In this document: positions 29,307-64,000 of the stretch, one piece after another | Position numbering within the stretch: position 1 is the first letter of the stretch | Layout: every line of letters begins with the position of its first letter | NCBI GenBank assembly: GCA_963697335.1 | Contig: CAVONQ010000002.1 | Coordinates: forward strand, 249,704 to 313,703 | DNA: 64,000 nt | DNA from: an uncultured cyanobacterium | GTDB taxonomy: Bacteria > Cyanobacteriota > Cyanobacteriia > PCC-6307 > Cyanobiaceae | Reading direction: 5' to 3' | Translations under genes and position numbers: made by a program | Notes under the pieces: generated by a model | The model's input: the letters and a program-made list of their open reading frames with translations, nothing else | Database searches by the model: none | Told to the model about the DNA's origin: nothing

Positions 29307-30638
29307 TCAGCTGCCCGAGAGGCTGGCATCCAGCCGGATCAGGCTCTGCAGCAGCACATTCACGCCCTGTTCGCACTGCTCCGGCGTGGTGAACTCCGCG
29401 GCGGAGTGGGACACGCCATCGCGGCTGGGCACGAAGATCATGCCCATGGCGGTGAGCCTGCCCAGCTCCTGGGAGTCGTGGCTGGCGCGGCTGGGCAGGT
29501 GGGTGTGGCTCAGCCCCAGCTGCTGGCAGCTCTCGGTGATCAACTCCTGCACCATCGGATCGGCGGGGCTGGGATCCACCACGAACTGGGGTGTCATCGC
29601 GATGCGGGTGCGGCTGGCCACAGCGATGTTCTCGATCTTCCGCTCCAGGTGGGCGCGCATGTGGTCGATCACGCTGTGGGAGAGGTCGCGCATGTCGAGG
29701 GTGAACTCCACCCGTCCCGGCACGATGTTGGCGGCATTGGGCCATACCTGCAGCTTGCCCACCGTGGCCACCGGATCGCCGGGGAAGTGGAGGGCCATGT
29801 CCTCCACTGCCAGGATGATCTGGGCCGCGGTGGTGAGGGCATCGCGCCGCATGCCCATCGGCGTGGTGCCGGCGTGATTGGCCTGGCCGGTCACGCTGAT
29901 CGTGTAGCGCTGCTGGCCCACAACGCCCTCCACCACGCCGATGTCCTTGCCCACGGCCTCCAGCACGCCCCCCTGCTCCACATGCAGCTCCACGAAGGCG
30001 GCGATCTCCCCGGGCGCCCGGCGGGCGCTGGCGCGGTGCTCCCAGGAGCCGCCGATGCTGGCCAGGCCCTCCTGAATGGGCACCCCCAGGGCCGTGGTGT
30101 AGCTGCTGGGGTCGTCGGAAGCGCGGCCCACCAGGCTCTTGCAGCCCACCATGGTGCTCTCCTCATCGGCGAACACGATCAGCTCGAGCGGGTGCTGCAG
30201 GCGCTGGTTGTGCTCCGAGAGCACCCGCACCACCTCCAGCCCGGCCAGCACGCCCAGGGCGCCGTCGTAGTGGCCCCCCTCCGGCACCGTATCGATGTGG
30301 GAGCCGGTGGCCAGCACGGGGGCTCCCGGCTCGAGGCCCTCGTAGCGGCCGATCATGTTGCCGGCGGCGTCGATGCGCACCGCCATGCCCGCCTGCTCCA
30401 TCCAGCCCTGCACCAGGGCGCGGGCGGCGCGGTCTTCATCGCTGAAGGCCAGCCGCCGCACGGCCCCGGAGGGCACCCGGCCGATGCTGGCCAGGGCTTC
30501 GAGGTTGAGGGCCAGGCGTTCACCGTCGGCCCGCAGCGCCAGCAACGAGCTGACCGCGGCCAGGGAGGCGGTGTCGCTGCCGAGATGGCCGTTGCTGAGG
30601 GGGCCTGGGCCCAGGGGAGCGGCGCTAAGCTGAGTCAT
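29307..30638 (-). CDS. M20 Zn amidohydrolase (N-carbamoyl-L-amino acid/allantoate hydrolase family)
   Basis: GSHIDTV, YDGALG, DEE, ELHVEQG, NHAGTTPM, SHD, GVSH. Confidence 0.9.
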   Translation of the reverse strand: MTQLSAAPLGPGPLSNGHLGSDTASLAAVSSLLALRADGERLALNLEALASIGRVPSGAVRRLAFSDEDRAARALVQGWMEQAGMAVRIDAAGNMIGRYEGLEPGAPVLATGSHIDTVPEGGHYDGALGVLAGLEVVRVLSEHNQRLQHPLELIVFADEESTMVGCKSLVGRASDDPSSYTTALGVPIQEGLASIGGSWEHRASARRAPGEIAAFVELHVEQGGVLEAVGKDIGVVEGVVGQQRYTISVTGQANHAGTTPMGMRRDALTTAAQIILAVEDMALHFPGDPVATVGKLQVWPNAANIVPGRVEFTLDMRDLSHSVIDHMRAHLERKIENIAVASRTRIAMTPQFVVDPSPADPMVQELITESCQQLGLSHTHLPSRASHDSQELGRLTAMGMIFVPSRDGVSHSAAEFTTPEQCEQGVNVLLQSLIRLDASLSGS

Positions 30639-30844
30639 GGAAAGGACCGTATCGGCTGAGGAGAATCGGCTGATCAGGGTGCGGGCGATTCCCCTTGATC
30701 CATCCGGCCGGAGGCGGGTCTGATCAAAGGTGCCCTTAGGCACAAACTCACGGACCAGGATCGTCAATCATCTCCAGAACCTAATTCTCCGCATCACGCG
30801 TGGTGGACCCCATGGGCCCATCACGTCCAACCCACCCACCTGCG

Positions 30845-31591
30845 ATGACCTACTCGATCGTTGCCTGGGACAGCCCCACCGGGATGACCGGTGTGGGCGT
30901 AGCCACCCGCCACCTGGCCGTGGGATCCCTCGTACCCCACGCCAGACCTGGTGTGGGGGCCGTGGCCACCCAGGCCGGCACCAACCCCTATTTCGGTCCG
31001 TGGGGCCTGGATCGGTTGGAGCAGGTTCAGCAGCAGAGCGGCGGGGAGCTGGGGGCTGAGGCGGTGCTGGAGTCGTTGCTGCAGGACGATCCGGGGCGGG
31101 ATGGCCGCCAGGTGCACCTGGTGGACAGCCAGGGCCGCACCGCCGCCTGGACAGGCCCCGACTGCGCCGGCCTCGCGGCCCATCGCTGCTATCCCGGCTT
31201 TTCGGTCGCGGGCAATTACCTCGCCTCCGAGCTGGTGCTGCTGGCCATGGCCGAGGCCTACATGGCCGCCGAGCGCCATGGTCTGGCCCTGGAGGAACGC
31301 CTGATGGCGGCTCTGGAGGCGGCTGAAGCCCACGGCGGCGACTATCGAGGCCGTCAGTCGGCCGCCCTGCTGGTGATGCACCAGGAGAGCTATCCCCACA
31401 TCGACTTCCGGGTGGACCATCACCCTGAGCCGCTGGTGGCGCTGCGCGAGATCCTGGCCGAAACCAGCCAGCCCTACTACACCGGTTTCCGCGCCACCCT
31501 GCCCACCACCCTCGGGGTGGCCCAGACCGCAGAGCTTCCAGCGGCAGGGGTGGAGTCGCCTCAGCCGCCCGACATGCCGATCAGCGCGTAG
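30845..31591 (+). CDS. DUF1028 (Ntn-hydrolase fold) protein
   Basis: MTYSIVAWD, GVGAVATQ, GGDYRGRQSAA, RVDHH. Confidence 0.88.
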   Translation: MTYSIVAWDSPTGMTGVGVATRHLAVGSLVPHARPGVGAVATQAGTNPYFGPWGLDRLEQVQQQSGGELGAEAVLESLLQDDPGRDGRQVHLVDSQGRTAAWTGPDCAGLAAHRCYPGFSVAGNYLASELVLLAMAEAYMAAERHGLALEERLMAALEAAEAHGGDYRGRQSAALLVMHQESYPHIDFRVDHHPEPLVALREILAETSQPYYTGFRATLPTTLGVAQTAELPAAGVESPQPPDMPISA

Positions 31592-33627
31592 GCCGGCTCT
31601 GCCTGATCGGCAGCCCCGGGCCTCCAGCCCAGCCGGTCGGCCAGTTCCCTGGCCTGGGCGGGCACATCGGCGGCCACGAACAGCTCGTGCATGATCTGCA
31701 CGCCGATCAGGTGATTGATCACGGCGTCGAGCTGCACCCGCGTTGCCGGGCTGGTGGCGGGATCGTCGTGGCGGGCGAACAGCGCCGCCACCCCCGCCCG
31801 ATCCAGCAGCCCGGCCCGCTCGATGGCCTCGGCGCTGAGGTGGCGGTCGGCCAGCACCTGCATGGCGGCGCGCTTCTCGGGGTCGGCGTGGGCCGGTGGG
31901 GCCATGAAGGCAAACTTCTCGCGGCGGTAGAGCTGCTCGGGCAGCAGGCCGCGCATGGCCTCGCGCAGCACGTATTTCTCCGTTTTGCCCTTGATGCGCA
32001 GCTCCGGCGGCACCTGCACGGCAACGGCGGCCAGATGGTGGTCGAGGAAGGCGGGGCGCGCCTCCATGGCGTGGGCCATGTCCACCCGGTCGCCGCCCCA
32101 GGTGAGGATCTGGCCCTCCAGCATCGTTTTGATCCACACATACTGGGCCCTGTCGAGGGCATGGCGGCCCTCGAGTTGGGAGGGATCGAGGCTGGCGGCG
32201 ATGGCGGCGCCGGGCTCATAGCCGGCGCAGGCCTGGCGGTGCAGCGGAGCCAGCAGGGCCGGCACCAGGGGAGCGCAGGCCAGCCAGGGCTGGAGGCAGC
32301 TGGGCGTGAAGCCCACCACGGCCTCCAGGGCCGGATCGTGCACCTGCTCCTCGGCCAGCATCGCCCCCTGCACCAGCTGGTTGGCCTCCTGCAGCAGCTG
32401 CTCCCACTCCTGGCGATCGGCCTCCGGCAGGTCCTGCAGCCCGTGCAGGAACATGTCGCGACGGAAGGCGGGATACCCCCCGAACAGCTCATCGGAGCCC
32501 TCGCCGGTCATCACCACCTTGTAGTGGGAGCGGTTGACCTCGCGGCTCATCAGGAATTTGGCCACCGCCAGGGTGTTGTAGATCGTGCGCTCGGTGTGCC
32601 AGATCGTGGCCTCCAGGTGGCCGTAGAGCTCATGGCCGGAGAGCCGCATCACCAGTTGGTCGGCGCCGGTGGCCTCGGCCATCGAGGTGGCGATCGGGGT
32701 TTCGTCGTAGCGGCTGTCGTCGAAGCCGATCGTGAACGCCTTCACCGGGTTCTGGCTCACCGCGGCGGCCAGGCCCAGGATCGAGCAGGAGTCGATGCCG
32801 CCGGAGAGGTAACAGCCCACGGGCACATCGGCCACCATGCGCACTTCCACGGCTTCCAGCAGGGCCTGGCGCACGGCGGCGATGTGGTCGGCCTCCGTGC
32901 GGTCGGGATCGCGCTCGCCGCTGCGGGGGAAGTCCACGTCCCAGTAGGGCTGGTCGTCGATGCTGAAGCGCCCGTCGTGGCGGCGCACGGTGAGCACGTG
33001 GCCGGGTTTGAGCTGGTGCACCCCCTCAAAGGCCGTGGTGCCCGGCACCATGGTCTGCATCAGCTGGTGGAACAGGCCTTCGGAGCTGAAGCGCCGTTGC
33101 ACGCCGGGGTGGGCGAACAGCACCTTGAGCTCGGAGCCGAACACCAGGCCCTCCTCGGTGAGGGTCCAGTACTGGGGCTTGACGCCGAAGCGGTCGCGCA
33201 CCAGGTAGAGGCTGTCGAGGCGGCTGTCGAACAGGGCGAAGGCGAACTCCCCGCGCAGCAGCGGCAAGCTGGCTTCCAGGCCCCGCTGCTGGTAGAGCCG
33301 CAGCAGGATCTCGGAATCGCTCTTGCTGCTGAAGTGATGGCCCTGGGCCGTGAGCGAGGCGCGGATCGCCTGGAAGTCGTAGAACTCACCGTTGTGGGCC
33401 ATCAACAGCTGGCCGTCCTCAGACACAAACGGCTGGCGGCCGCGGTTGGCATCGAGGTCGATGATCGAGAGGCGGGCATGGCAGAAGCCCACGCCCTGAT
33501 CCGGCAGGCCCCTCACGCCGAAGCCATCGGGGCCCCGGTGAACCTGGATCGCCGCCATGTTGACGAGCACCTGCTCGTCGATCGGCTGCTGGGGCTGGAG
33601 CTGAAATACTCCCCCGATGCCACACAT
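31561..33627 (-). CDS. asnB: Asparagine synthase-like glutamine amidotransferase
   Basis: N-terminal MCGI, HRGPD, LSGGIDS, TGEGSDELFGGY. Confidence 0.9.
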   Translation of the reverse strand: MCGIGGVFQLQPQQPIDEQVLVNMAAIQVHRGPDGFGVRGLPDQGVGFCHARLSIIDLDANRGRQPFVSEDGQLLMAHNGEFYDFQAIRASLTAQGHHFSSKSDSEILLRLYQQRGLEASLPLLRGEFAFALFDSRLDSLYLVRDRFGVKPQYWTLTEEGLVFGSELKVLFAHPGVQRRFSSEGLFHQLMQTMVPGTTAFEGVHQLKPGHVLTVRRHDGRFSIDDQPYWDVDFPRSGERDPDRTEADHIAAVRQALLEAVEVRMVADVPVGCYLSGGIDSCSILGLAAAVSQNPVKAFTIGFDDSRYDETPIATSMAEATGADQLVMRLSGHELYGHLEATIWHTERTIYNTLAVAKFLMSREVNRSHYKVVMTGEGSDELFGGYPAFRRDMFLHGLQDLPEADRQEWEQLLQEANQLVQGAMLAEEQVHDPALEAVVGFTPSCLQPWLACAPLVPALLAPLHRQACAGYEPGAAIAASLDPSQLEGRHALDRAQYVWIKTMLEGQILTWGGDRVDMAHAMEARPAFLDHHLAAVAVQVPPELRIKGKTEKYVLREAMRGLLPEQLYRREKFAFMAPPAHADPEKRAAMQVLADRHLSAEAIERAGLLDRAGVAALFARHDDPATSPATRVQLDAVINHLIGVQIMHELFVAADVPAQARELADRLGWRPGAADQAEPAYALIGMSGG

Positions 33628-33673
33628 AGATCGTCTCCTGGATGAAAGCTTGTACGGCTGAACGTGGCGGACT

Positions 33674-34759
33674 TCAGATGATGTCCATCACCTGGTCTGT
33701 GCGCTCCACCATGCAGGTGAGCAGGGCCATGCGGATGAACACGGCGCCGCGGGCCTGGGAGAAGTACCAGTTGTGGGGGCTGCCATCGAGGCAGGTGCCC
33801 AGCTCGGCCCCGCGGGCCAGGGGGTGGAGGATGATCGCTTCAGGCCGGTAGGGCAGATCGGCGGTGAGGTGGAAGCTGCGGCCATGCACCTCGTAGTTGT
33901 CCCCCACCCAGGCGATCGCGTTGATGTAGATCACATCGAGATCGGGCACGGCGGCGCTGAGGTCATCGCTGGTGAGCACCTTGATGCCGGCCTGCTCCAG
34001 CTCCTCCCGCTGGCCTGGATCAAAGTAGCTCTCGGCTTCCCCAGGGTCGATGCCAGGCTCGTGGAACAGCACCAGTTCATCGATCATCTGCGGGAATTTG
34101 GTGAGGATGCGCAGCAGGGAACGCACCGTGCGCATGCGCTTCGGGATGCCCACGATGCCGATGCGGATGCGTTGATCGGTGGGCACATCCTGCTCCACCA
34201 GCTGGGGCCGCCACTTGAAGATGGTGTAGAGGTCGGCCATGGCCTGGGTGGGATGTTCATCGATGCCATTGCCGGCATTGATGATCGGAATCCGCAGAGA
34301 TTCCGTCATCTCGTAGATGGCCTGGGCATTGGTATCCCGCAACACCACGCAGTCGCCGTAGTTGTTGAACATCTCGGCCACATCCCGGAGCGTTTCCCCC
34401 TTGGCGATACCAGTGGTGCTGCGATCCGTGATCGTGATCGTGTCGCCGCCGAGCCGGTGCCAGGCGCTGTCGAAGGAGAGTCGGGTGCGGGTGCTGGGCT
34501 CGTAGAAGGCGTTGATCAGGATCTTGCGCTGCAGCGGGCTGTTGAAGCGGATGTAGCGCTGGGGATTGCTCTCGAACTTCGCCGCCAGCCGAAACACCTG
34601 CAGCAGGGAAGTGGCGCTGTATTGCAGCGTGGAGATCACATGCTGATTCATCAGATCACTCAGGGCCCCGCCGTGCTCGCGGATCTGCTCGAGCAGGGCC
34701 TGTGGGTGAGCGTTCCCATAGACATCAGGGCCGAGCCGATTGAAGTGGGGAGAGTGCAT
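33674..34759 (-). CDS. Aspartate carbamoyltransferase-like carbamoyltransferase (non-canonical)
   Basis: FYEPSTRTRLSF, KGET, NAG..EHPTQ, RTVRSL, HPLAR; lacks RxQxER. Confidence 0.85.
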   Translation of the reverse strand: MHSPHFNRLGPDVYGNAHPQALLEQIREHGGALSDLMNQHVISTLQYSATSLLQVFRLAAKFESNPQRYIRFNSPLQRKILINAFYEPSTRTRLSFDSAWHRLGGDTITITDRSTTGIAKGETLRDVAEMFNNYGDCVVLRDTNAQAIYEMTESLRIPIINAGNGIDEHPTQAMADLYTIFKWRPQLVEQDVPTDQRIRIGIVGIPKRMRTVRSLLRILTKFPQMIDELVLFHEPGIDPGEAESYFDPGQREELEQAGIKVLTSDDLSAAVPDLDVIYINAIAWVGDNYEVHGRSFHLTADLPYRPEAIILHPLARGAELGTCLDGSPHNWYFSQARGAVFIRMALLTCMVERTDQVMDII

Positions 34760-34885
34760 CGTCAAAGGTGATCCCGGGGGCTGGGGATGTTGTGGTCGAA
34801 CGGGGTGGAAGGCTCCATCTTCCGCCTCAACCGGGTTGTTGTCTGGAATCTCTTGTGTTTTCTGCAACATCGGAACCGCAAAAAA

Positions 34886-34899
34886 GTAGCGGTATTGAC
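34886..34899. promoter_or_regulatory. Possible NtcA site upstream of the carbamoyltransferase gene
   Basis: GTA-N8-GAC (one mismatch to GTA-N8-TAC) with an A-rich flank; no clear -10 at the usual spacing. Confidence 0.3.
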
Positions 34900-34925
34900 C
34901 GTTTTGTGATCAGTCGGCCCTGGCG

Positions 34926-35117
34926 CTACCAGACCCGGCCGTTGCGCCACTCCACGAACCAGATGCCCAGGATCACCAACACGGCCAGCACGAGGCCGGC
35001 GATGCTGCCGTACACCACCAGGCCGAACCACCAGCCGGAGATCAGCCAGGAGCCGGCGGGGGCGCTGGTGCTCAGCAGCAGGGAAGGGAACAGGGCCATG
35101 GCTTGGGGGATGGGCAC
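34926..35117 (-). CDS. Small membrane protein downstream of the SSS transporter
   Basis: Hydrophobic segment ending IWFVEWRNGRVW; 3 bp after the SSS stop. Confidence 0.6.
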   Translation of the reverse strand: MPIPQAMALFPSLLLSTSAPAGSWLISGWWFGLVVYGSIAGLVLAVLVILGIWFVEWRNGRVW

Positions 35118-35120
35118 GAC

Positions 35121-36554
35121 TCAGGGGCTCTCGGGATCGCCGGCCAGCTGGCGCCAGTCGTACTGCTCGGGCCAGTAGTGGCTGCCCAGGCCCATCACCA
35201 GGGCCGAGACGGCGGCGGAGACCAGGGCGGCGCAGTAGGGGGCGATCAGCCCGTAGGCCAGCAGGCCGCTGACCGAGCCCAGCAGCATGGCGGCGGTGGC
35301 CGCCTGGCGGTTGGCCTGGCGCCAGTAGAGCCCCATGGCAATCGGCCAGATCGTGGAGGCCACCAGGGCGCCGGTGAACAACAGCAGCTGGTACATCGAC
35401 GTCACGTATTGCCAGGAGAGCAGCATGGTCAGCAGGCCCAGGGCCACCACCACCCGGCGGGCGGCCTGGCGGATCTGCTGGTCGGTGGAGTCGGGGCGTA
35501 ACCAGTGGGCGATCACGTCCTCGGCGATCAGATCGGCCGTGGCGGCGAGCAGGGAGTCGAGGGTGGAGGTGAGCGAGGCGAAGATGATCACGAACACCAC
35601 CGCGGCGCCGCTGCTGCCCAGCAGCTGGGCGGTGACGATGGGGAACACCATGTTCACCTGGGGAATCTCGAGGTTCTGGGCCAGGGCCATCAGGGCGATG
35701 GCGCCCGTCACGATCGGCACGGTGACCCAGGCCAGGCCGCCGAGCACGAAGGAGCGGAACACCACCGAGGGGCGGCTGGCGAACACCCGCGACCACCAGA
35801 TGTTGTTGTGGAACACCTCGCCCATGCTGAACAGCCCGGTGTTCCAGGCGAAGAGCAGACCTGCCGGCAGCAGCAGATTCAGTCGCTCGGGATGCTCGCT
35901 GGCCAGGGCCGTGTACACCTGATCGGTGCCGAAGCGGCTGAAGCCGAGCACGGCCACCAGCACCAGCAACGCCATGATCAGCAGCGACTGGATGAAGTCG
36001 GTGCCCACCACCGCTCGCATGCCGCCGAACAGGGTGTAGGTGGTGGACACGCCGATCACACACACCATGCCAAGGCGGTAGTCGAAGCCCGAGAGCGACT
36101 GCAGCAGCAGGCCGGCCCCCATGCCCTGGGTGATCAGAAAGCCCAGGGTGTAGGCCATGGTGATCAGCAGGAACAGGGCCCAGCAGAGCCGCCCGTAGCG
36201 CAGCCGCACGAAGTCGCCGCTGGTGCGGGCCCGGGGCATCAGCCGCTTGATCCGCACCGCCAGGGGAGCGAACAGGAACAGCCCCAGGCCGGCGAGGGCG
36301 TAGCCGAACATGCCCCAGAGGCCGAGGGTGTAACCCACCTCCGGCGCCGCCAGGGTGGTGTTGCCGGTGACCCAGCTGGCCATCAGGGTGGCCGTGCTCA
36401 GGGCCAGGCCGATGTTGCGGCCGGCGAGCAGGTAGTCGTCGGCGTCGCCGCTGCCGCGCCGGCCCCACCAGATGCCCAGGGCGATCCAGAGCACGGAGAA
36501 GCCCACCAGGAGCAGCCAGGCGGCGCCCGGCGCCAGCATCGCGTCAGTCGTCAT
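35121..36554 (-). CDS. Sodium:solute symporter (DUR3-like)
   Basis: YLLAGR, ASWVT, YTLFGGMRAVVGTDFIQ, STLDSLL; many TM helices. Confidence 0.9.
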   Translation of the reverse strand: MTTDAMLAPGAAWLLLVGFSVLWIALGIWWGRRGSGDADDYLLAGRNIGLALSTATLMASWVTGNTTLAAPEVGYTLGLWGMFGYALAGLGLFLFAPLAVRIKRLMPRARTSGDFVRLRYGRLCWALFLLITMAYTLGFLITQGMGAGLLLQSLSGFDYRLGMVCVIGVSTTYTLFGGMRAVVGTDFIQSLLIMALLVLVAVLGFSRFGTDQVYTALASEHPERLNLLLPAGLLFAWNTGLFSMGEVFHNNIWWSRVFASRPSVVFRSFVLGGLAWVTVPIVTGAIALMALAQNLEIPQVNMVFPIVTAQLLGSSGAAVVFVIIFASLTSTLDSLLAATADLIAEDVIAHWLRPDSTDQQIRQAARRVVVALGLLTMLLSWQYVTSMYQLLLFTGALVASTIWPIAMGLYWRQANRQAATAAMLLGSVSGLLAYGLIAPYCAALVSAAVSALVMGLGSHYWPEQYDWRQLAGDPESP

Positions 36555-36566
36555 CGGGGCAGGGCA

Positions 36567-36695
36567 TCAACCGGGGTCATCGAAGGGATCGCGCTGGTGC
36601 CAGCGCCGGTGGCCGCGCAGCACCATCACCACGGTGGTCAGGGTCACCAGGCCGCCGAGCACGAAGATCAGCAGGGCCCGTTGCAGCTCGGTCAT
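36567..36695 (-). CDS. Small single-TM protein upstream of the SSS transporter (42 aa)
   Basis: MTELQRALLIFVLGGLVTLTTVVMVLRGH; GGAGG upstream. Confidence 0.55.
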   Translation of the reverse strand: MTELQRALLIFVLGGLVTLTTVVMVLRGHRRWHQRDPFDDPG

Positions 36696-36729: not shown

Positions 36730-36752
36730 AAAAAAGCCCCGGAAACCGGGGC
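36730..36752 (-). terminator. Terminator downstream of tRNA-fMet
   Basis: GCCCCGG-TTT-CCGGGGC-T6. Confidence 0.85.
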
Positions 36753-36771
36753 CTGTTGAAGAGCAAACAAG

Positions 36772-36848
<77 letters not shown>

Positions 36849-59719: not shown

Positions 59720-60076
59720 ATGGGAAATCCGATCAGCCGGGAATTATTTCTGGAACGGGCCCGTTCGCGCTTTGGCGATCGCTATGACTACGGCGAAATA
59801 ATCTACAAAAGCTATAAATCACCCATCAAGATTCGCTGCAAGATGCATCCGGTGAAGCAGATCTGCATCACCCCTGAAAAGCATCTGCAAACCACCGGCG
59901 GCTGCAAGTACTGCCTGCGGGAGATGCGCATTCAGATGCTGGAGCGGGAGCTCAACCGCCAGAGCGCCCAGCATCCCCCCGTCCAGGCGGGCGAGGCCGC
60001 TCGGCTGGAGCCCCAGACCGCTGCTGGCCTGGGCCCCCAGACGCCGCCGCCGCCGGCCTCACCACCCGCCCCCTGA
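59720..60076 (+). CDS. Stand-alone DUF723/CapR-like zinc-binding domain protein
   Basis: FLERAR..FGDRYDY...Y...SPIKIRCKMH......TPEKHL...GGCKYC. Confidence 0.65.
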   Translation: MGNPISRELFLERARSRFGDRYDYGEIIYKSYKSPIKIRCKMHPVKQICITPEKHLQTTGGCKYCLREMRIQMLERELNRQSAQHPPVQAGEAARLEPQTAAGLGPQTPPPPASPPAP

Positions 60077-60209
60077 GCCCTGGCCTGTCGCCCGTAGCCC
60101 GGCAGCTCAAGACCCAGGCCCTGGAGGTGTTCCGCGACCCCGCCGCAGCGCTGAGGCCACCCCTTTCGATCTTCAAGACCGCACCCGCAGGCTCGGTCAG
60201 GGGGCGCCG

Positions 60210-60500
60210 CGGGAGCACAACGTGGCCCTCGATGCGCCGGCTTGGATGGCACCTTGATGAAGGAAGCGCCGCTGCTGGCGGTGACCCTGGTGGACAACCA
60301 GGATTTGGTTGAAGCCGCTGGCCTACGCCTTCATCCTGCTGCGGGATGAGGGCTATCCCTGCAGCTTCCGTGCCGATTACTGCGGGGCCTCCCACCCCGC
60401 CGCGTTCATCACCAACGCCGAAGGCTGGGCCGAGTGGCACTGCCAGGGAGGCTCGGTGACGGGGTGGGTGGAGGAGAGCTGGTGGGAGGAGCCGTCTTAG
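60210..60500 (+). pseudogene. Deleted remnant of a cytoplasmic alpha-amylase (GH13, AmyA-like) C-terminus
   Basis: DGTLMKEAPLLAVTLVDNQD / WLKPLAYAFILLRDEGYPC..ADY.GA / TNAEGWAEWHCQGGSVTGWV in broken frames. Confidence 0.7.
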
Positions 60501-60549
60501 CCGTAGGGATCCTCACGGGATCTGGAGTGTGCTAAGGGTATAGAGACCT

Positions 60550-60598
60550 GTGCTCAAAGGGCCTGCTGAGGGCCTGCAGTCCGGCTGACATTTTGTAG
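60550..60598 (+). pseudogene. intI: 3'-terminal stub of an integron integrase
   Basis: GTGCTCAA-AGGGCCTGCTGAGGGCCTGCAGTCCGGCTGACATTTTGTAG reads, with a frameshift, VL(N)..GLLRACSPADIL*, like the IntI tail VLNRGxxGVxSPxD; upstream of the cassettes. Confidence 0.5.
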
Positions 60599-60853
60599 CC
60601 AATTGAACAGGTGGTTTGCGGACCCATGAACCACACTGAAGAAGACAGGAGCGGTGCTGAGATCCTAAGGTGGGCAAGGGATTTCCAGAATCGGGTGAGG
60701 ATTTCTAATTGTGGTTATCAGAAAGGTGAGGACCGGCTGCTGTGGTTCATGGAACCATCCAATGACTAGTTGGCAGGGCATCTAAGAGTCTCGTCAGACT
60801 TGACATACTTGCGGCACTGCTCTAAATTTTCAATTCCTATAGACCTTGGGCTA

Positions 60854-61273
60854 GTGGCAAGCTGGTTGACCGAGTTTCAGGAGTGGTACGCCGAGCAGCA
60901 CCCCATTGTTAAAGGCGCAGTTGTACTAGGCGGTGGCGCCGTTGCCTGCGCTGGTGGTGTTGTTGCTGCCCCCGTTGTCGGTGCGATGGCATCTGCAGCA
61001 GGTCTAGGGGTAGCAGGAGGATCCCTAGCGGGCGCTGCCGCGTCTTCGGCAGGTCTTGCTGCTTTGGGTGGAGGCTCCTTGGCTGCAGGTGGTCTGGGGA
61101 TGGCTGGAGGAACAGCTGTAGTAGCTGCAGCAGCAGGTGCGGCAGGTGCAGGTGCCACATCAATCCTAAGCAAGAAAGTTGATTCCGAAGGTGAACGCAC
61201 GAAGGAAGACTTCAAGAGGGCTTCAAGCGAAAGGGTTCAAAAAGGTGACATTCGTTTTGAGGATGAGGTTTGA
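60854..61273 (+). CDS. Glycine-zipper membrane protein A (cassette 1)
   Basis: Long Gly/Ala hydrophobic tract GAAASSAGLAALGGGSLAAGGLGMAGG. Confidence 0.7.
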   Translation: MASWLTEFQEWYAEQHPIVKGAVVLGGGAVACAGGVVAAPVVGAMASAAGLGVAGGSLAGAAASSAGLAALGGGSLAAGGLGMAGGTAVVAAAAGAAGAGATSILSKKVDSEGERTKEDFKRASSERVQKGDIRFEDEV

Positions 61274-61275
61274 CG

Positions 61276-61647
61276 ATGGCTTCTGTCGCTGACTTTGCAA
61301 CTGAATTTGCCAAGAGAGCTGCAAATGGCAAAAATCCTTCTGTTTATGTGTCTAAGTTGCATGTAGAGAGCTTCCTTCTGGTCTTGGCGCGAGAGGGGTT
61401 CTCGTTCGCTAAGGAGGCACTTGAGCAAATCACCGATCCAGATCTCAGAAGAATCATTGAGACGATCTTCTTCTCAACCGTGATTGGAGCGGGCGCGGGT
61501 GCTGTTATCGGGGGAGTAGTTGCTGGCCCCCCGGGAGCTCAAGTGGGAGCTGCTGTTGGTGCAGGCCTAGGTTTCGCAGCCGGCTGTATCGCCATAACAA
61601 TTACTGCTAAGCAAAAGGGGGATGGCCTTCAGATCTCTATGGCCTAA
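61276..61647 (+). CDS. Glycine-zipper membrane protein B (cassette 1)
   Basis: GAGAGAVIGGVVAGPPGAQVGAAVGAGLG hairpin; abuts gene A. Confidence 0.75.
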   Translation: MASVADFATEFAKRAANGKNPSVYVSKLHVESFLLVLAREGFSFAKEALEQITDPDLRRIIETIFFSTVIGAGAGAVIGGVVAGPPGAQVGAAVGAGLGFAAGCIAITITAKQKGDGLQISMA

Positions 61648-61725
61648 TACACTTTAGCACTTCCCTCTGGAGTTCAATAGGGATTATCATAGTTTGCGAA
61701 AGTGCATCAGGCTGCAACAGTTGCC

Positions 61726-61810
61726 TGCCAACATCAAGATACAGAAGACGGGAGCGATACGTAATGGCTGGTCTTGGGGTTGTTGCCCGCTTCTGATCTT
61801 GGCGTTATGC
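61726..61810 (+). repeat. attC site 1
   Basis: TGCCAAC-ATCAAGAT-A-CAGAAG-A-CGGG...CCCG-CTTCTG-ATCTTGG-C-GTTATGC imperfect inverted repeat with bulged bases. Confidence 0.85.
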
Positions 61811-61976
61811 GGCCTACCTGAAGCTAGCCATTCGAAAGCTTCCTACATCTGAGCTTTGCGCCTGCCTCGGGCTGCAATCCATGAACACTCAGCTTGGTGA
61901 GCCTATAATTTTGAAATCTGCCTTGGGGCGCACGTCATAGTGTCGGTTCAGTAAGCCTTCCGCGCAGGAGCCCTAA

Positions 61977-62702
61977 GTGCTACCACCCATCACGAGACAG
62001 AAGTACGCTGAAAGGTTGGCCGAGTTAATCAGGCGCGGGGAAGCGGTGCCTGTCTCAAGCAAGACTATATCGAGCGAGAATTGGGTCACTGGCATGACCA
62101 CCTCCAGGCTAGTCGAGACAGTTGATTGGCCAGAATTCGTAAAGTGGCGCACCAACTGCACGACTCTGCTCGACCAGCTGTTGCCTACTTCCAGTGCCCA
62201 TCGTGCCACCGCCGAGCAATTCAAAACAATAAAGAATAATCGTGATTCGCTGCAGTTTGGCATTCAGTTCATGAAAGCCGTTTCTGAAGACTTTGATCAA
62301 GGATTTTTTGACGACATCGGAATGCAGATTGAGACTGAGATCGCTGCTGATTATCTTGGTCAAGCGATAATGCTGGTCGAGTCGGAGTTGCGGGAACAGA
62401 TCAGCTCTGCCCCAGCGGCCGTCCTTGCCGGGGTGGTTCTTGAGAAGTGTCTTCGCTCAATGTGCGAACATTTGAGCCCCCCAGAGCCAACAACACTAAA
62501 TAACGGAAAGCCCCTAACATTGAACCCATTAATCGAAGCATTGCGAAAGAGGGGCGCATTCAACGAGGTACAGGCCAAGCACCTCCGAGCATGGGCTGAC
62601 ATTCGGAATAGTGCCGCGCACGGACAATTTGAAGAATTCACAACGGAACAAGTAAAGGCAATGATCAGAGGCATTGAATTGTTTCTGGCGCAAAGCAGAT
62701 GA
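61977..62702 (+). CDS. HEPN-domain (DUF4145-like) protein (cassette 2)
   Basis: AAVLAGVVLE..LR and RNSAAH (Rx4H); AGGAG RBS before the GTG start. Confidence 0.8.
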   Translation: MLPPITRQKYAERLAELIRRGEAVPVSSKTISSENWVTGMTTSRLVETVDWPEFVKWRTNCTTLLDQLLPTSSAHRATAEQFKTIKNNRDSLQFGIQFMKAVSEDFDQGFFDDIGMQIETEIAADYLGQAIMLVESELREQISSAPAAVLAGVVLEKCLRSMCEHLSPPEPTTLNNGKPLTLNPLIEALRKRGAFNEVQAKHLRAWADIRNSAAHGQFEEFTTEQVKAMIRGIELFLAQSR

Positions 62703-62703
62703 T

Positions 62704-62737
62704 CTCTAATATGAGCATCCAGAGAGTCCACTTAGGC
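62704..62737 (+). repeat. Degenerate, internally deleted attC site
   Basis: CTCTAAT-ATGAGCATCCAG right after the stop codon; ends CTTAGGC, complementary to the next R'' GCCTAAC. Confidence 0.45.
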
Positions 62738-62822
62738 CGCCAGCAGAGATTTCTGGCCTAGTAGCACCTATAACCTCAAGCTGCGCCTTAAACTTAGCTT
62801 GAGACAGATCTGGAAGAGCAGA

Positions 62823-63455
62823 ATGAACATTCATTGGACAAAGGAACACTTGCCGTTTCGGGAGAGCCTTATTGAGGTCAACATGGTTGTTGGGTATCGC
62901 GACCGCACCACTCAGAACATTACGGATTGCCCTGCTTATATTTTGCAAGGCATAAGAAATGGGGTCCTGAAGAATTATCCAACTGCATTGAAGAAATATA
63001 ACACGTCTTACTGCAACGCTATCCCCAAGATTATCAGTGGCTTTCTGACAGCATTCAAGGATCGTTGCGTTCACCATGCTGCCCTCATTGTGCCACCTTC
63101 CTCTCGGGATGACGCGCGGCCTTATGCGGAAGCTTTGTTGAAGGCTGGGATAGCGTACATCGACTTATCCGACTGTGTACAGAGAATCGATTCTTCTTTC
63201 CGCGCAGGTGGGGCGGTGTCGTTTGAAGATGTTTGCTCTTCAATCAAGGTTATTCAAGAACCACCGACCGAACCTTACGGCTCCCTAGTCGTGGTCGATG
63301 ATGTTTTGTCTTCCGGGCGTTCAGTCGCGGCAGTCGTGCTGGCACTTCGCAATTCAGGATTTATTCTTCAATCGACCGAGATTTTCGTGGCTGCTGTGCT
63401 CTCTGTCGAACGCAAGGTTCAGGTCGAACCGGCTGGCGAGGAAGAGACTGCCTAA
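62823..63455 (+). CDS. Phosphoribosyltransferase-like (ComF-type) protein (cassette 3)
   Basis: LIVPPSS and PRPP-loop LVVVDDVLSSGRS; stop codon lies inside the attC R''. Confidence 0.75.
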   Translation: MNIHWTKEHLPFRESLIEVNMVVGYRDRTTQNITDCPAYILQGIRNGVLKNYPTALKKYNTSYCNAIPKIISGFLTAFKDRCVHHAALIVPPSSRDDARPYAEALLKAGIAYIDLSDCVQRIDSSFRAGGAVSFEDVCSSIKVIQEPPTEPYGSLVVVDDVLSSGRSVAAVVLALRNSGFILQSTEIFVAAVLSVERKVQVEPAGEEETA

Positions 63456-63536
63456 CATCATCATCCAACCGGCCCGTTCAAACCAGTTTGTATAGTAGCC
63501 ATGATTGCCGCGCGCGGCTGATGATGGGCGTAATGC
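63450..63536 (+). repeat. attC site 2 (R' GTT mutated to GTA)
   Basis: GCCTAAC-ATCATCAT-C-CAACCG...CGGCTG-ATGATGGGC-GTAATGC. Confidence 0.75.
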
Positions 63537-63554
63537 GGAAACACAGCTTGAGCC

Positions 63555-64000
63555 ATGCCTAAGCGTCAGCGGTCGATAGGGTCGCTTCGGCGGGAGCTCG
63601 TCATGAAGTCTCGGGAGGCGGCGCTAACGGCAATTCGTGTCTTTAATGACCCACAGGTTAACTTCAAGTCGGAGACGTTTATCGTCTTGATGATGATCGC
63701 TTGGACGTATCTTCTGCACGCATACTATCGGGCACAGAAGGTCGAGTATAGGTACTATAAGCAGGGCCCAAAGCGGCGGATTTTCGATCGCACAAAGCAT
63801 GGCGCCTACAAATACTGGGAGCTGGAGGGCTGCTTGAACGAGAGCAGCTGTCCGCTCGACCGCGACACAGCGAACAACCTTCGGTTTCTTCTTGGCCTTC
63901 GTCATGAAATAGAGCACCAAATGACGAAGTCCCTGGACGCTTACCTAAGTGGCAGATACCAGGCATGCGCCCTTAATTTTAATGAGTATCTCAAGAGCCT
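63555..64000 (+). CDS. DUF3644-like HEPN protein (cassette 4), runs off the window
   Basis: Not in the ORF track. Manual translation: KSREAALTAIRVFNDP..FKSETFIVLMMIAWTYLLHAYY...YWEL...LRHEIEH. Confidence 0.8.
   Translation, partial: MPKRQRSIGSLRRELVMKSREAALTAIRVFNDPQVNFKSETFIVLMMIAWTYLLHAYYRAQKVEYRYYKQGPKRRIFDRTKHGAYKYWELEGCLNESSCPLDRDTANNLRFLLGLRHEIEHQMTKSLDAYLSGRYQACALNFNEYLKS

Follow-up and report, generated by a model that had tools for sequence, protein, structure and literature searches.

The locus and its ATCase-like gene

The stretch of DNA considered here, which we call the window, is 64,000 nucleotides long and comes from an uncultured cyanobacterium of the family Cyanobiaceae (assembly GCA_963697335.1, contig CAVONQ010000002.1, positions 249,704 to 313,703). 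Near its middle lies a gene for a protein resembling aspartate carbamoyltransferase (ATCase), the name under which public databases list its whole family. That annotation is almost certainly wrong. This ATCase-like protein has kept the residues of the carbamoyl-phosphate site and lost those that hold the side chain of aspartate. It has an AsnB-like amidotransferase as its constant partner, and the cassette that carries both genes is restricted to salt-adapted lineages. We favour the view, with a probability that we put at about 0.45, that the product of the cassette is a solute, the amide of an N-carbamoyl amino acid and perhaps that of N-carbamoyl-glutamine. The features of the locus are these:

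29307..30767, minus strand, divergently placed: M20 carbamoylase-type gene (NCBIfam and PDB matches)
30845..31591, plus strand: DUF1028 protein, starting MTYSI (Pfam DUF1028, 3.6e-66, from residue 17 of a longer reading frame)
31561..33627, minus strand: AsnB-like glutamine-dependent amidotransferase, 688 residues, starting MCGIGG, with an SGGIDS PP-loop (Pfam)
33674..34759, minus strand: ATCase-like carbamoyltransferase (pseudo-ATCase, pyrB2), 361 residues (Pfam, NCBIfam, AlphaFold2)
34926..35117, minus strand: small membrane protein in the interval between the symporter and the ATCase-like gene, up to 63 residues (reading frame)
35121..36554, minus strand: sodium:solute symporter (SSF), 477 residues (Pfam SSF, 5e-27)
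36567..36695, minus strand: small membrane protein 5' of the symporter, 42 residues from a conserved Met (reading frame)
36734..36754, minus strand: terminator-like hairpin after the tRNA, nine pairs (seven of them G-C), then a T run
36772..36848, minus strand: tRNA-Met(CAT) (ARAGORN; Rfam tRNA, 64.3 bits)

The ATCase-like gene is exactly one open reading frame (ORF), from the ATG at 34759 to the stop at 33674. A 398-residue version starting from an ATG at 34870 was rejected as unsupported, homologues being 352-378 residues long with conservation from about residue 6. Both OTCace domains of Pfam are recognized (OTCace_N, 1.7e-40; OTCace, 1.4e-10), and the protein falls under all the NCBIfam equivalog cut-offs: the best model, TIGR00670 for ATCase, gives 184.9 bits against a cut-off of 236.95, NF002032 gives 183.2 against 263, and the best of the ornithine carbamoyltransferase models, NF001986, 111.3 against 306. 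An AlphaFold2 model computed from a 66-sequence alignment (predicted local distance difference test score, pLDDT, 91.9; predicted template modelling score, pTM, 0.92) has its best PDB matches among ATCases, including closed forms bound to N-(phosphonacetyl)-L-aspartate (PALA), with target-normalised TM-scores of 0.85-0.89 at 27-32% identity. In this model the 240s loop of ATCases is a beta-hairpin (282-285, 288-291), and the protein further carries a conserved N-terminal extension, P11-D12-V13-Y14-G15, that is specific to its family. Comparison of cyanobacterial with gammaproteobacterial sequences shows 121 of the 361 positions to be invariant and a further 57 to be conserved at 90% or more, which argues for strong selection on the protein as an enzyme.

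A scan of the genome collection gave 334 relatives of the ATCase-like protein, of which the best 80 loci were analysed, several of them ending at contig edges; together with the window protein they make the 81 sequences for which family counts are given below. Residues were matched to the Escherichia coli catalytic chain 1ezz_A by a HMMER alignment. A sequence-only reading of the gene had listed its motifs and concluded that the pocket for the beta-carboxylate of aspartate is lost. The motifs are all there: STRT at residues 89-92, KGET at 120-123, HPTQ at 169-172, RTVRSL at 210-215, YINAIAW at 278-284 and HPLA at 312-315. Kept with respect to the E. coli chain are S52-T55 (here S89-T92), K84 (K120), R105 (R141), H134 and Q137 (H169 and Q172), R167 (R210) and L267 (L314). 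Changed are T228 (N280), R229 (A281), Q231 (A283), K232 (W284) and P268 (A315), and also three residues beyond the list of that reading, S80 (G117), H106 (D142) and D162 (I205). The positions of STRT, K120, R141, H169, Q172 and R210 are conserved in 81/81 family sequences. Residue 281 is Ala in 74, Ser in five and Thr in two; residue 283 is Ala in 53, Ser in 27 and Val in one. The third position, 315, is Ala in all 81, so that the H-P-[LG]-P motif of PyrB reads HPLA throughout, as against Pro in 42/42 canonical ATCases (those of our alignment A1), where R229 and Q231 are each found 39 times in 42. Loss of the beta-carboxylate pocket is therefore borne out across the family, R229 and Q231 being replaced in 81/81 sequences, and the alignment to the E. 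coli PyrB chain offers no equivalent Arg/Gln pair in these columns.

What does such an active site accept? R210 corresponds to R167, which we take to be the alpha-carboxylate ligand of ATCase. Its retention, combined with the loss of the beta-carboxylate ligands, suggests that the acceptor is an alpha-amino acid whose alpha-carboxylate is free and whose side chain is not that of aspartate, and that carbamoylation comes first. Judged from the alignment alone, the pocket seems to have gained no compensating cationic ligand. R208, at the position of E. coli Y165, was considered as a substitute for R229 and is unlikely to be one, the family reading Arg in 36 sequences, Lys in 32, Tyr in five, Gln in five and Phe in three. 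We think it probable, and with good confidence, that the protein is an active transcarbamoylase that depends on carbamoyl phosphate and has an alpha-amino acid other than aspartate as its acceptor. L-glutamine appears most likely, glutamate and asparagine being possible as well, and glutamine or asparagine would suit both a constant partner of the AsnB type and an M20 neighbour of the carbamoylase type. Of the acceptor proposed in the sequence-only reading, an alpha-amino acid with a neutral side chain, the part that excludes aspartate is supported by the ligand loss, by the PyrB and ArgF that the genome has in addition and by a context foreign to pyrimidine synthesis; the neutral side chain is a suggestion.

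The genome (2.58 Mb, 98.8% complete) has three OTCace_N genes, for a canonical ArgF, for a canonical PyrB with an RLQKER motif (L003, 1468-2505) and for the ATCase-like protein. The latter is about 30% identical to ATCases in general, 31% to the PyrB and 27% to the ArgF of its own genome. Among the best 80 of the 334 relatives its closest named kin are a record of Aphanothece stagnina (86%) and records of Cyanobium sp. (80-85%). Neither its neighbours in the window nor those at related loci belong to pyrimidine synthesis.

Two observations on the wider family may be added here. A single contig of one same-family genome (G144) bears two ATCase-like copies, located near 1.68 Mb and 2.54 Mb, whose identities to the query are 70% and 72%. 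There is also a more distant set of proteins of about 355 residues (P0132, P0134, P0136, P0137, P0141-P0146, P0151-P0154, P0208), 35-43% identical to the query, that have the N-terminal extension and a W-R-P-[ED]-L segment in common with it. In this set S-T-R-T is degenerate (e.g. SNSRTR, SQCTGR) and the HPLA position is lost too; the HPTQ site mostly reads (E/R)-N-P-(T/S)-H, -Q or -V, with E-H-P-T-H in P0134 and P0151 and E-R-P-V-H in P0153. To go by these motifs, the set may have a different activity or consist of pseudo-enzymes.

Partner genes and cassette boundaries

The AsnB-like gene directly follows the ATCase-like gene in 80/80 loci. Its product has an Asn_synthase domain (2.5e-91) and GATase_6/7, with the Cys2 glutaminase start and the PP-loop intact. 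It passes the broad TIGR01536 cut-off (421.7 against 267.1 bits), and stays under those of AsnB NF006949, of the XrtA amidotransferase TIGR03108 and of TIGR03104 (311.9 against 570.1), the model for the amidotransferase of N-acetylglutaminylglutamine amide (NAGGN). It is far under the E. coli-type AsnB cut-off (267.7 against 499) and matches the models of long amidotransferases that do not make asparagine better than that of E. coli-type AsnB. Pairwise-identity matrices of the ATCase-like and AsnB-like proteins are strongly correlated (r = 0.91 over 69 loci), and between cyanobacteria and gammaproteobacteria each is about 63.5% identical, as against 45% for the symporter. The invariant core of the system is this pair, that is, one carbamoyl transfer and one ATP-dependent amidation. 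The genome has two other genes of the Asn_synthase family (G000 contig 14, 122672-123784 and 165734-166681), and weak glycosyltransferase-domain matches to a sucrose-phosphate-synthase model lie near the second of them, at 158-171 kb of the same contig.

The other genes are less constant. The symporter (TIGR00813, 148 bits; under the PanF and PutP cut-offs) lies directly upstream on the same strand in 77/80 loci and has a match in 78/80. The two loci of Prochlorococcus keep the ATCase-like, AsnB-like, M20 and DUF1028 genes and have no symporter match, hence the substrate need not be imported. An M20 match is found within 8 kb in 42/80 loci, and DUF1028 in 25 of the 32 cyanobacterial-type loci and in none of the 48 others. 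Annotated loci of the Idiomarina type, Idiomarina xiamenensis included, have the symporter and no hydrolase within 8 kb, which makes the hydrolases accessories. Order varies as well: marine Synechococcus and Prochlorococcus have the ATCase-like, AsnB-like, M20 and DUF1028 genes on one strand in that sequence; among loci scanned with Pfam, M20 is upstream in Kangiella and Pseudoalteromonas and downstream in a Thiotrichaceae locus; and all five gammaproteobacterial loci that were scanned show an unannotated ORF followed by the symporter, ATCase-like and AsnB-like genes.

The M20 protein passes the cut-offs of TIGR01879 (410 bits against 204) and NF006771 (424.5 against 399), and comes close to that of the ErtE N-carbamyl-L-glutamate amidohydrolase model (415 against 520); its best PDB match is 3n5f, an N-carbamoyl-L-amino acid hydrolase (2.1e-93). 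Being of the carbamoylase type, it would undo the exact bond formed by the transcarbamoylase. In the window it is transcribed separately from the operon of the ATCase-like and AsnB-like genes. The DUF1028 gene is convergent with the AsnB-like gene, their 3' ends overlapping by 31 bases; its start at MTYSI is set by comparison with a Synechococcus homologue, in which the profile is matched from residue 2 on. The only PDB relative of DUF1028, 2imh, is annotated as hypothetical. We infer an Ntn-hydrolase with Thr2 as N-terminal nucleophile, possibly with the role of an amidase.

Both small membrane ORFs are positionally conserved in cyanobacterial-type loci (the one upstream of the symporter in 24, the one downstream in 30), their gammaproteobacterial matches being weak, and a Pfam scan of the two gave nothing meaningful. 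The downstream protein has a conserved C-terminal W-x-E-W-R-x-G-x-V-W; in a tblastn search 29 cyanobacterial-type loci have it in the corresponding place (E<=1.2e-7), with weaker matches in L074 and four gammaproteobacterial loci. The upstream protein has homologues in 24 cyanobacterial-type loci and one weak gammaproteobacterial match (L082). A 67-residue version of it, reaching 36770, was discarded: it overlaps the terminator at 36754-36734, and the homologues begin at the internal Met.

On the minus strand the order is tRNA-Met, hairpin, 42-residue protein, symporter, small membrane protein, ATCase-like and AsnB-like genes, and the hairpin sets the cassette operon apart from the tRNA and asparaginase II. 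From the 42-residue ORF to M20 (about 29307-36695), seven genes are inserted or deleted together, in a variable slot that adjoins a tRNA gene. In five congeners without the ATCase-like gene, the order is asparaginase II, tRNA-Met, GMC oxidoreductase, CbiX, ParB-like, Na/H exchanger and Usp, and the interval from the tRNA to GMC is either 133-200 bp long (two genomes) or occupied by a two-component cassette of 2.2-3.8 kb (three genomes). The latter encodes a response regulator together with a histidine kinase; in the two longer slots, those of L092 and L094, a gene for a periplasmic-binding protein separates them:

L092, 1322-4685: two-component contents of the slot, cassette-free congener
L094, 1604-4940: the same, cassette-free congener
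L093, 9763-11563: the same, cassette-free congener

Since the slot is empty in two congeners and differently filled in three, the tRNA-Met to GMC interval is a variable integration hot spot, and the seven genes come and go as a unit within it. GMC oxidoreductase, asparaginase II and carB were considered as members of the system and rejected: they accompany it in one lineage only (6, 7 and 7 of the 80 loci, respectively), GMC and asparaginase II are present in all five cassette-free congeners and hence are backbone, and so is carB.

Several further features of this region deserve mention. At 29307-29329 the stop region of M20 overlaps the start of the GMC ORF by 23 bases; through the insertion, M20 and GMC may have come to share a read-through transcript, and GMC is followed by a strong terminator (27516-27489). 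A scan with Rfam found the tRNA only, with no riboswitch or leader in the cassette, and a scan for sigma-70-type promoters gave no site between 27000 and 39600. Among the read sets listed as containing the operon there was none of RNA, and those of DNA held only a small share of it. ChlH, CGLD27, DUF3318 and DUF3386 as neighbours and a GC content of about 69% point to a picocyanobacterium of the Cyanobium type. From 60001 to 64000 the GC content drops from about 0.70 to 0.51-0.58, with ORFs that match no Pfam family or only domains of unknown function (DUF4145, DUF3644), and this end of the window is probably a foreign island. In other genomes, L028, titled as a gammaproteobacterial metagenome-assembled genome, has a cyanobacterial-type cassette with M20 and DUF1028 and an ATCase-like protein 71% identical to the query; its contig is probably misbinned Synechococcus, or else the result of recent transfer. 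In Synechococcus sp. MIT S1220 (L021, 13742-16909), a fused hydantoinase A/B of the oxoprolinase type, 1055 residues long, lies on the opposite strand about 0.6 kb past the DUF1028 end of the cassette, with a 107-residue ORF between, a neighbour that might tie the cassette to ring chemistry of the hydantoin or oxoproline type.

Salt adaptation and a possible carbamoyl amide solute

The genome encodes a glucosylglycerol-phosphate synthase, GgpS (723.5 bits against a cut-off of 569), and also a sucrose-phosphate synthase. Co-occurrence with GgpS was followed in 151 genomes of the same family, all at least 90% complete, the ATCase-like protein being counted at E<=1e-100. It is present in 30 of them, which belong to 9 of 36 genera, and GgpS in 51. 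Twenty-eight genomes have both, 98 have neither, 23 have GgpS only and two the ATCase-like protein only (G060, and G025, which is 94% complete). In other words, GgpS is found in 28/30 relatives that have the cassette, as against 23/121 of those that do not. The same holds within the genus, where the ATCase-like gene is present in five of six GgpS-positive genomes and in none of the four that are GgpS-negative. The cassette is thus restricted to salt-adapted lineages, as an osmolyte would require, although its function is not proven thereby.

We propose the following scheme. The ATCase-like enzyme would carbamoylate the alpha-amino group of its acceptor; the AsnB-like enzyme, with ATP and ammonia derived from glutamine, would then turn a carboxylate into an amide, and the resulting N-carbamoyl amino-acid amide would bear no charge. 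Solute that has leaked out would be taken up again by the symporter and its two small membrane partners, and DUF1028 (as an amidase) and the M20 carbamoylase would break the solute down, reversing both steps. That the two core enzymes jointly build a carbamoyl amino-acid amide seems to us slightly better than an even bet; that this compound serves as osmolyte or solute pool falls a little short of one. Its precise identity as carbamoyl-glutamine amide is a tentative choice, and we hold as doubtful the broadest form of the proposal, a glutamine N-carbamoyltransferase whose nitrogen-rich product would be an osmolyte widespread and horizontally exchanged among marine picocyanobacteria and gammaproteobacteria. 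Carbamoyl-glutamine amide itself is described as an osmolyte of Ectothiorhodospira marismortui with both charged groups masked (Roberts, 2005), and it is mentioned, with no genes attached, by Imhoff et al. (2020). It is not known from any other producer. Our literature search on the names of the solute returned only reviews that mention it, and no paper assigning genes to it; a search linking transcarbamylase or ATCase with asparagine synthetase, salt stress, symporter or osmolyte gave nothing relevant.

A number of facts weigh against this proposal. The association with GgpS is confounded by habitat and shared ancestry, relatives being non-independent, and 23 GgpS-positive relatives do without the cassette. 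Two arginines are invariant and specific to the ATCase-like family, R337 and a residue at the foot of the 80s loop, R113, whose counterpart in E. coli is S76; they might bind an anionic side chain, in which case glutamate would be favoured over glutamine. The cassette itself encodes the hydrolases that would break the product down; in marine Synechococcus and Prochlorococcus their genes come immediately 3' of the AsnB-like gene, with the same orientation, an arrangement that suits a linear pathway too. Our literature search found no experimental test of the marine pseudo-ATCase subgroup. Finally, the cluster is enriched in warm, iron-replete waters depleted in nitrogen and phosphorus, notably in the Red Sea (Dore et al., 2023, PMC10119275). 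A solute with four nitrogen atoms looks costly in such a place. The Red Sea is, to be sure, also a basin of high salinity, and the field pattern hence does not tell the readings apart.

Two other schemes were weighed. Scavenging is one: the symporter would import a ureido compound, the ATCase-like enzyme would run in reverse, by phosphorolysis, to supply carbamoyl phosphate for arginine and pyrimidines, and M20 and DUF1028 would release ammonia. Dore et al. (2023, PMC10119275) propose for the cluster an alternative pyrimidine biosynthesis or the recycling of complex nitrogen, and its enrichment in nitrogen- and phosphorus-depleted waters goes in this direction, as do a transporter heading the operon in 77/80 loci and the two hydrolases of cyanobacteria. 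Catabolic transcarbamoylases do exist, the characterised pseudo-ATCase of Rubrobacter among them (Barba et al., 2013, PMC4016543), and carB lies 4.7 kb from the cassette in the window lineage. That adjacency, however, is limited to 7/80 loci of a single lineage, and the partner present in 80/80 loci is an amidotransferase that consumes ATP and glutamine, with no role in such a route. Prochlorococcus, moreover, retains the enzymes and not the transporter, and the annotated Idiomarina-type loci have no hydrolase nearby. No carbamate kinase is encoded in the genome (best score 24 bits against a cut-off of 358) or among 84 ORFs scanned with Pfam from seven related loci, which argues against an ATP-yielding catabolic transcarbamoylase. 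A canonical NtcA box (GTA-N8-TAC) is absent from the 64-kb window, where 0.34 would be expected, and none is consistently found upstream of the operon in the 32 cyanobacterial-type loci, weak evidence as only perfect sites were scored. Scavenging thus strikes us as unlikely. In the other scheme the carbamoyl group would be a mere protection of the alpha-amino group during amidation by the AsnB-like enzyme, to be removed by M20. The pathway would end in a free amino-acid amide or a derivative of one, DUF1028 catalysing one more step. The N-acetyl intermediates of arginine synthesis are an analogue. Such a linear route would suit the four enzyme genes on one strand in marine Synechococcus and Prochlorococcus, and the streamlined Prochlorococcus genome, which retains all four of them with no transporter. 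It sits badly with the 38/80 loci that have no M20 within 8 kb and with a DUF1028 confined to cyanobacteria, both of which make the hydrolases dispensable to the core, and with the window itself, where DUF1028 is inverted and M20 separately transcribed. We give it little credence.

Two explanations remain. If the AsnB-like protein were a plain asparagine synthetase, the ATCase-like enzyme might make N-carbamoyl-asparagine. The TIGR01536 score is in agreement with this, the loss of two beta-carboxylate ligands is what a switch from aspartate to asparagine requires, and asparaginase II is the next gene upstream in the window. But asparaginase and tRNA are backbone: congeners that lack the cassette have them too, and a terminator lies between them and the operon; an AsnB-like protein of 688 residues so far under the E. 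coli-type cut-off is a poor candidate; the product would remain anionic, with no known role; and the closest carbamoylase model is that for a glutamate derivative. It is, in our view, improbable. As for a second ATCase isozyme for pyrimidine synthesis, which the public names, the fold and some 30% identity to ATCases would suggest, it is barely conceivable. The R229 and Q231 equivalents are missing throughout the family and HPLP has become HPLA, every ATCase equivalog cut-off is missed, a canonical PyrB is encoded elsewhere in the genome, the context is unrelated to pyr genes, and the distribution is patchy, at 30/151 relatives.

Known systems and meaning

How does the carbamoyl amide proposal stand among systems already described? 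The loss of the aspartate motif is not new. Table 1 of Barba, Dutoit, Legrain & Labedan (2013, BMC Syst Biol 7:99, PMC4016543) already lists HPLA and AIA, AIS or SIA in place of RxQ, with STRT and HPTQ intact. The same paper reports synteny with a Na+ symporter, an 'asparaginase' and a HyuC-like gene in Synechococcus WH 8102, Kangiella, Nitrosococcus and Rhodopirellula; the enzyme it characterises is that of Rubrobacter, a member of another subgroup. The HPLA/AIA row of its table is numbered 1 and its text speaks of subgroup 3, so that we matched the subgroup by motif and with the help of Shi et al. (2015). The likeness is close: AIA, AIS and SIA all occur among our 80 loci, the synteny is the same (symporter, carbamoylase and an 'asparaginase' which is in fact of the AsnB type), a genuine ATCase coexists in the same way, Synechococcus and Kangiella were recovered here too, and we see no difference in kind. 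The ATCase-like protein is a further member of the published marine pseudo-ATCase or pyrB2 family, and what the present analysis contributes is the extent of the cassette, its slot beside tRNA-Met and the association with GgpS. The cluster asnB-pyrB2-pydC described in Synechococcus and Prochlorococcus by Dore et al. (2023, ISME J, PMC10119275) has the same three enzyme genes and the same patchy distribution of flexible genes. Apart from this paper, a search on the gene name pyrB2 brought up unrelated organisms only. The passages of that paper on the cluster make no mention of the symporter, the small membrane proteins or DUF1028, and the relative found in the window is of a high-GC, Cyanobium type, with DUF1028 inverted.

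Other carbamoyltransferases are further away. PyrB (EC 2.1.3.2) has the same fold, the same carbamoyl-phosphate site and the equivalents of K84, R105 and R167; the window protein differs from it in the equivalents of R229, Q231, P268, S80, H106 and D162, all of which are changed, in its N-terminal extension and in its 240s hairpin. The ornithine carbamoyltransferase family (ArgF, AOTCase, SOTCase, PTCase) has an HCLP-type motif where the window protein reads HPLA, the corresponding cut-offs are not reached, and the genome has its own, separate ArgF. Ureidoglycine transcarbamylase (UGTCase, Rxyl_2847 of Rubrobacter xylanophilus), the sole pseudo-ATCase without RxQ to have been characterised, uses an alpha-amino acid acceptor with a neutral ureido side chain (Barba et al., 2013, PMC4016543; Shi et al., 2015). 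Its motif is H(T/S)LP (Shi et al., 2015), and its gene belongs to a purine-degradation operon with allantoinase and carbamate kinase (Barba et al., 2013, PMC4016543). The loss of RxQ is common to both proteins; the one of the window differs by its HPLA, by the absence of carbamate kinase and by an amidotransferase as partner.

The closest parallel in logic is to be found outside the transcarbamoylases. In the NAGGN system, asnO-ngg, an enzyme that caps the amino end and an amidotransferase of the AsnB family produce an uncharged, capped amide osmolyte from glutamine-type units. We propose for the cassette the same combination of capping and amidation, with the difference that the cap would be a carbamoyl group set by a transcarbamoylase, and in NAGGN is an acetyl group set by Ngg. 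The cassette contains no homologue of Ngg, and its AsnB-like protein, as noted, stays under the TIGR03104 cut-off.

The first lesson is one of annotation, the almost certain misnaming of the family inflating the calls of pyrimidine pathways in marine genomes. This is not a rare curiosity, as the cassette is common, being present in 30/151 of the relatives sampled and in many marine gammaproteobacteria. If the product is indeed a carbamoyl amino-acid amide, a new transcarbamoylase specificity would be at hand, and an orphan osmolyte would have found its genes, well beyond the one purple sulfur bacterium. Abundant phototrophs of the ocean, some Prochlorococcus included, would then hold a nitrogen-rich pool of solute, and this would explain a gene cluster that was flagged as niche-linked in the Tara Oceans data.

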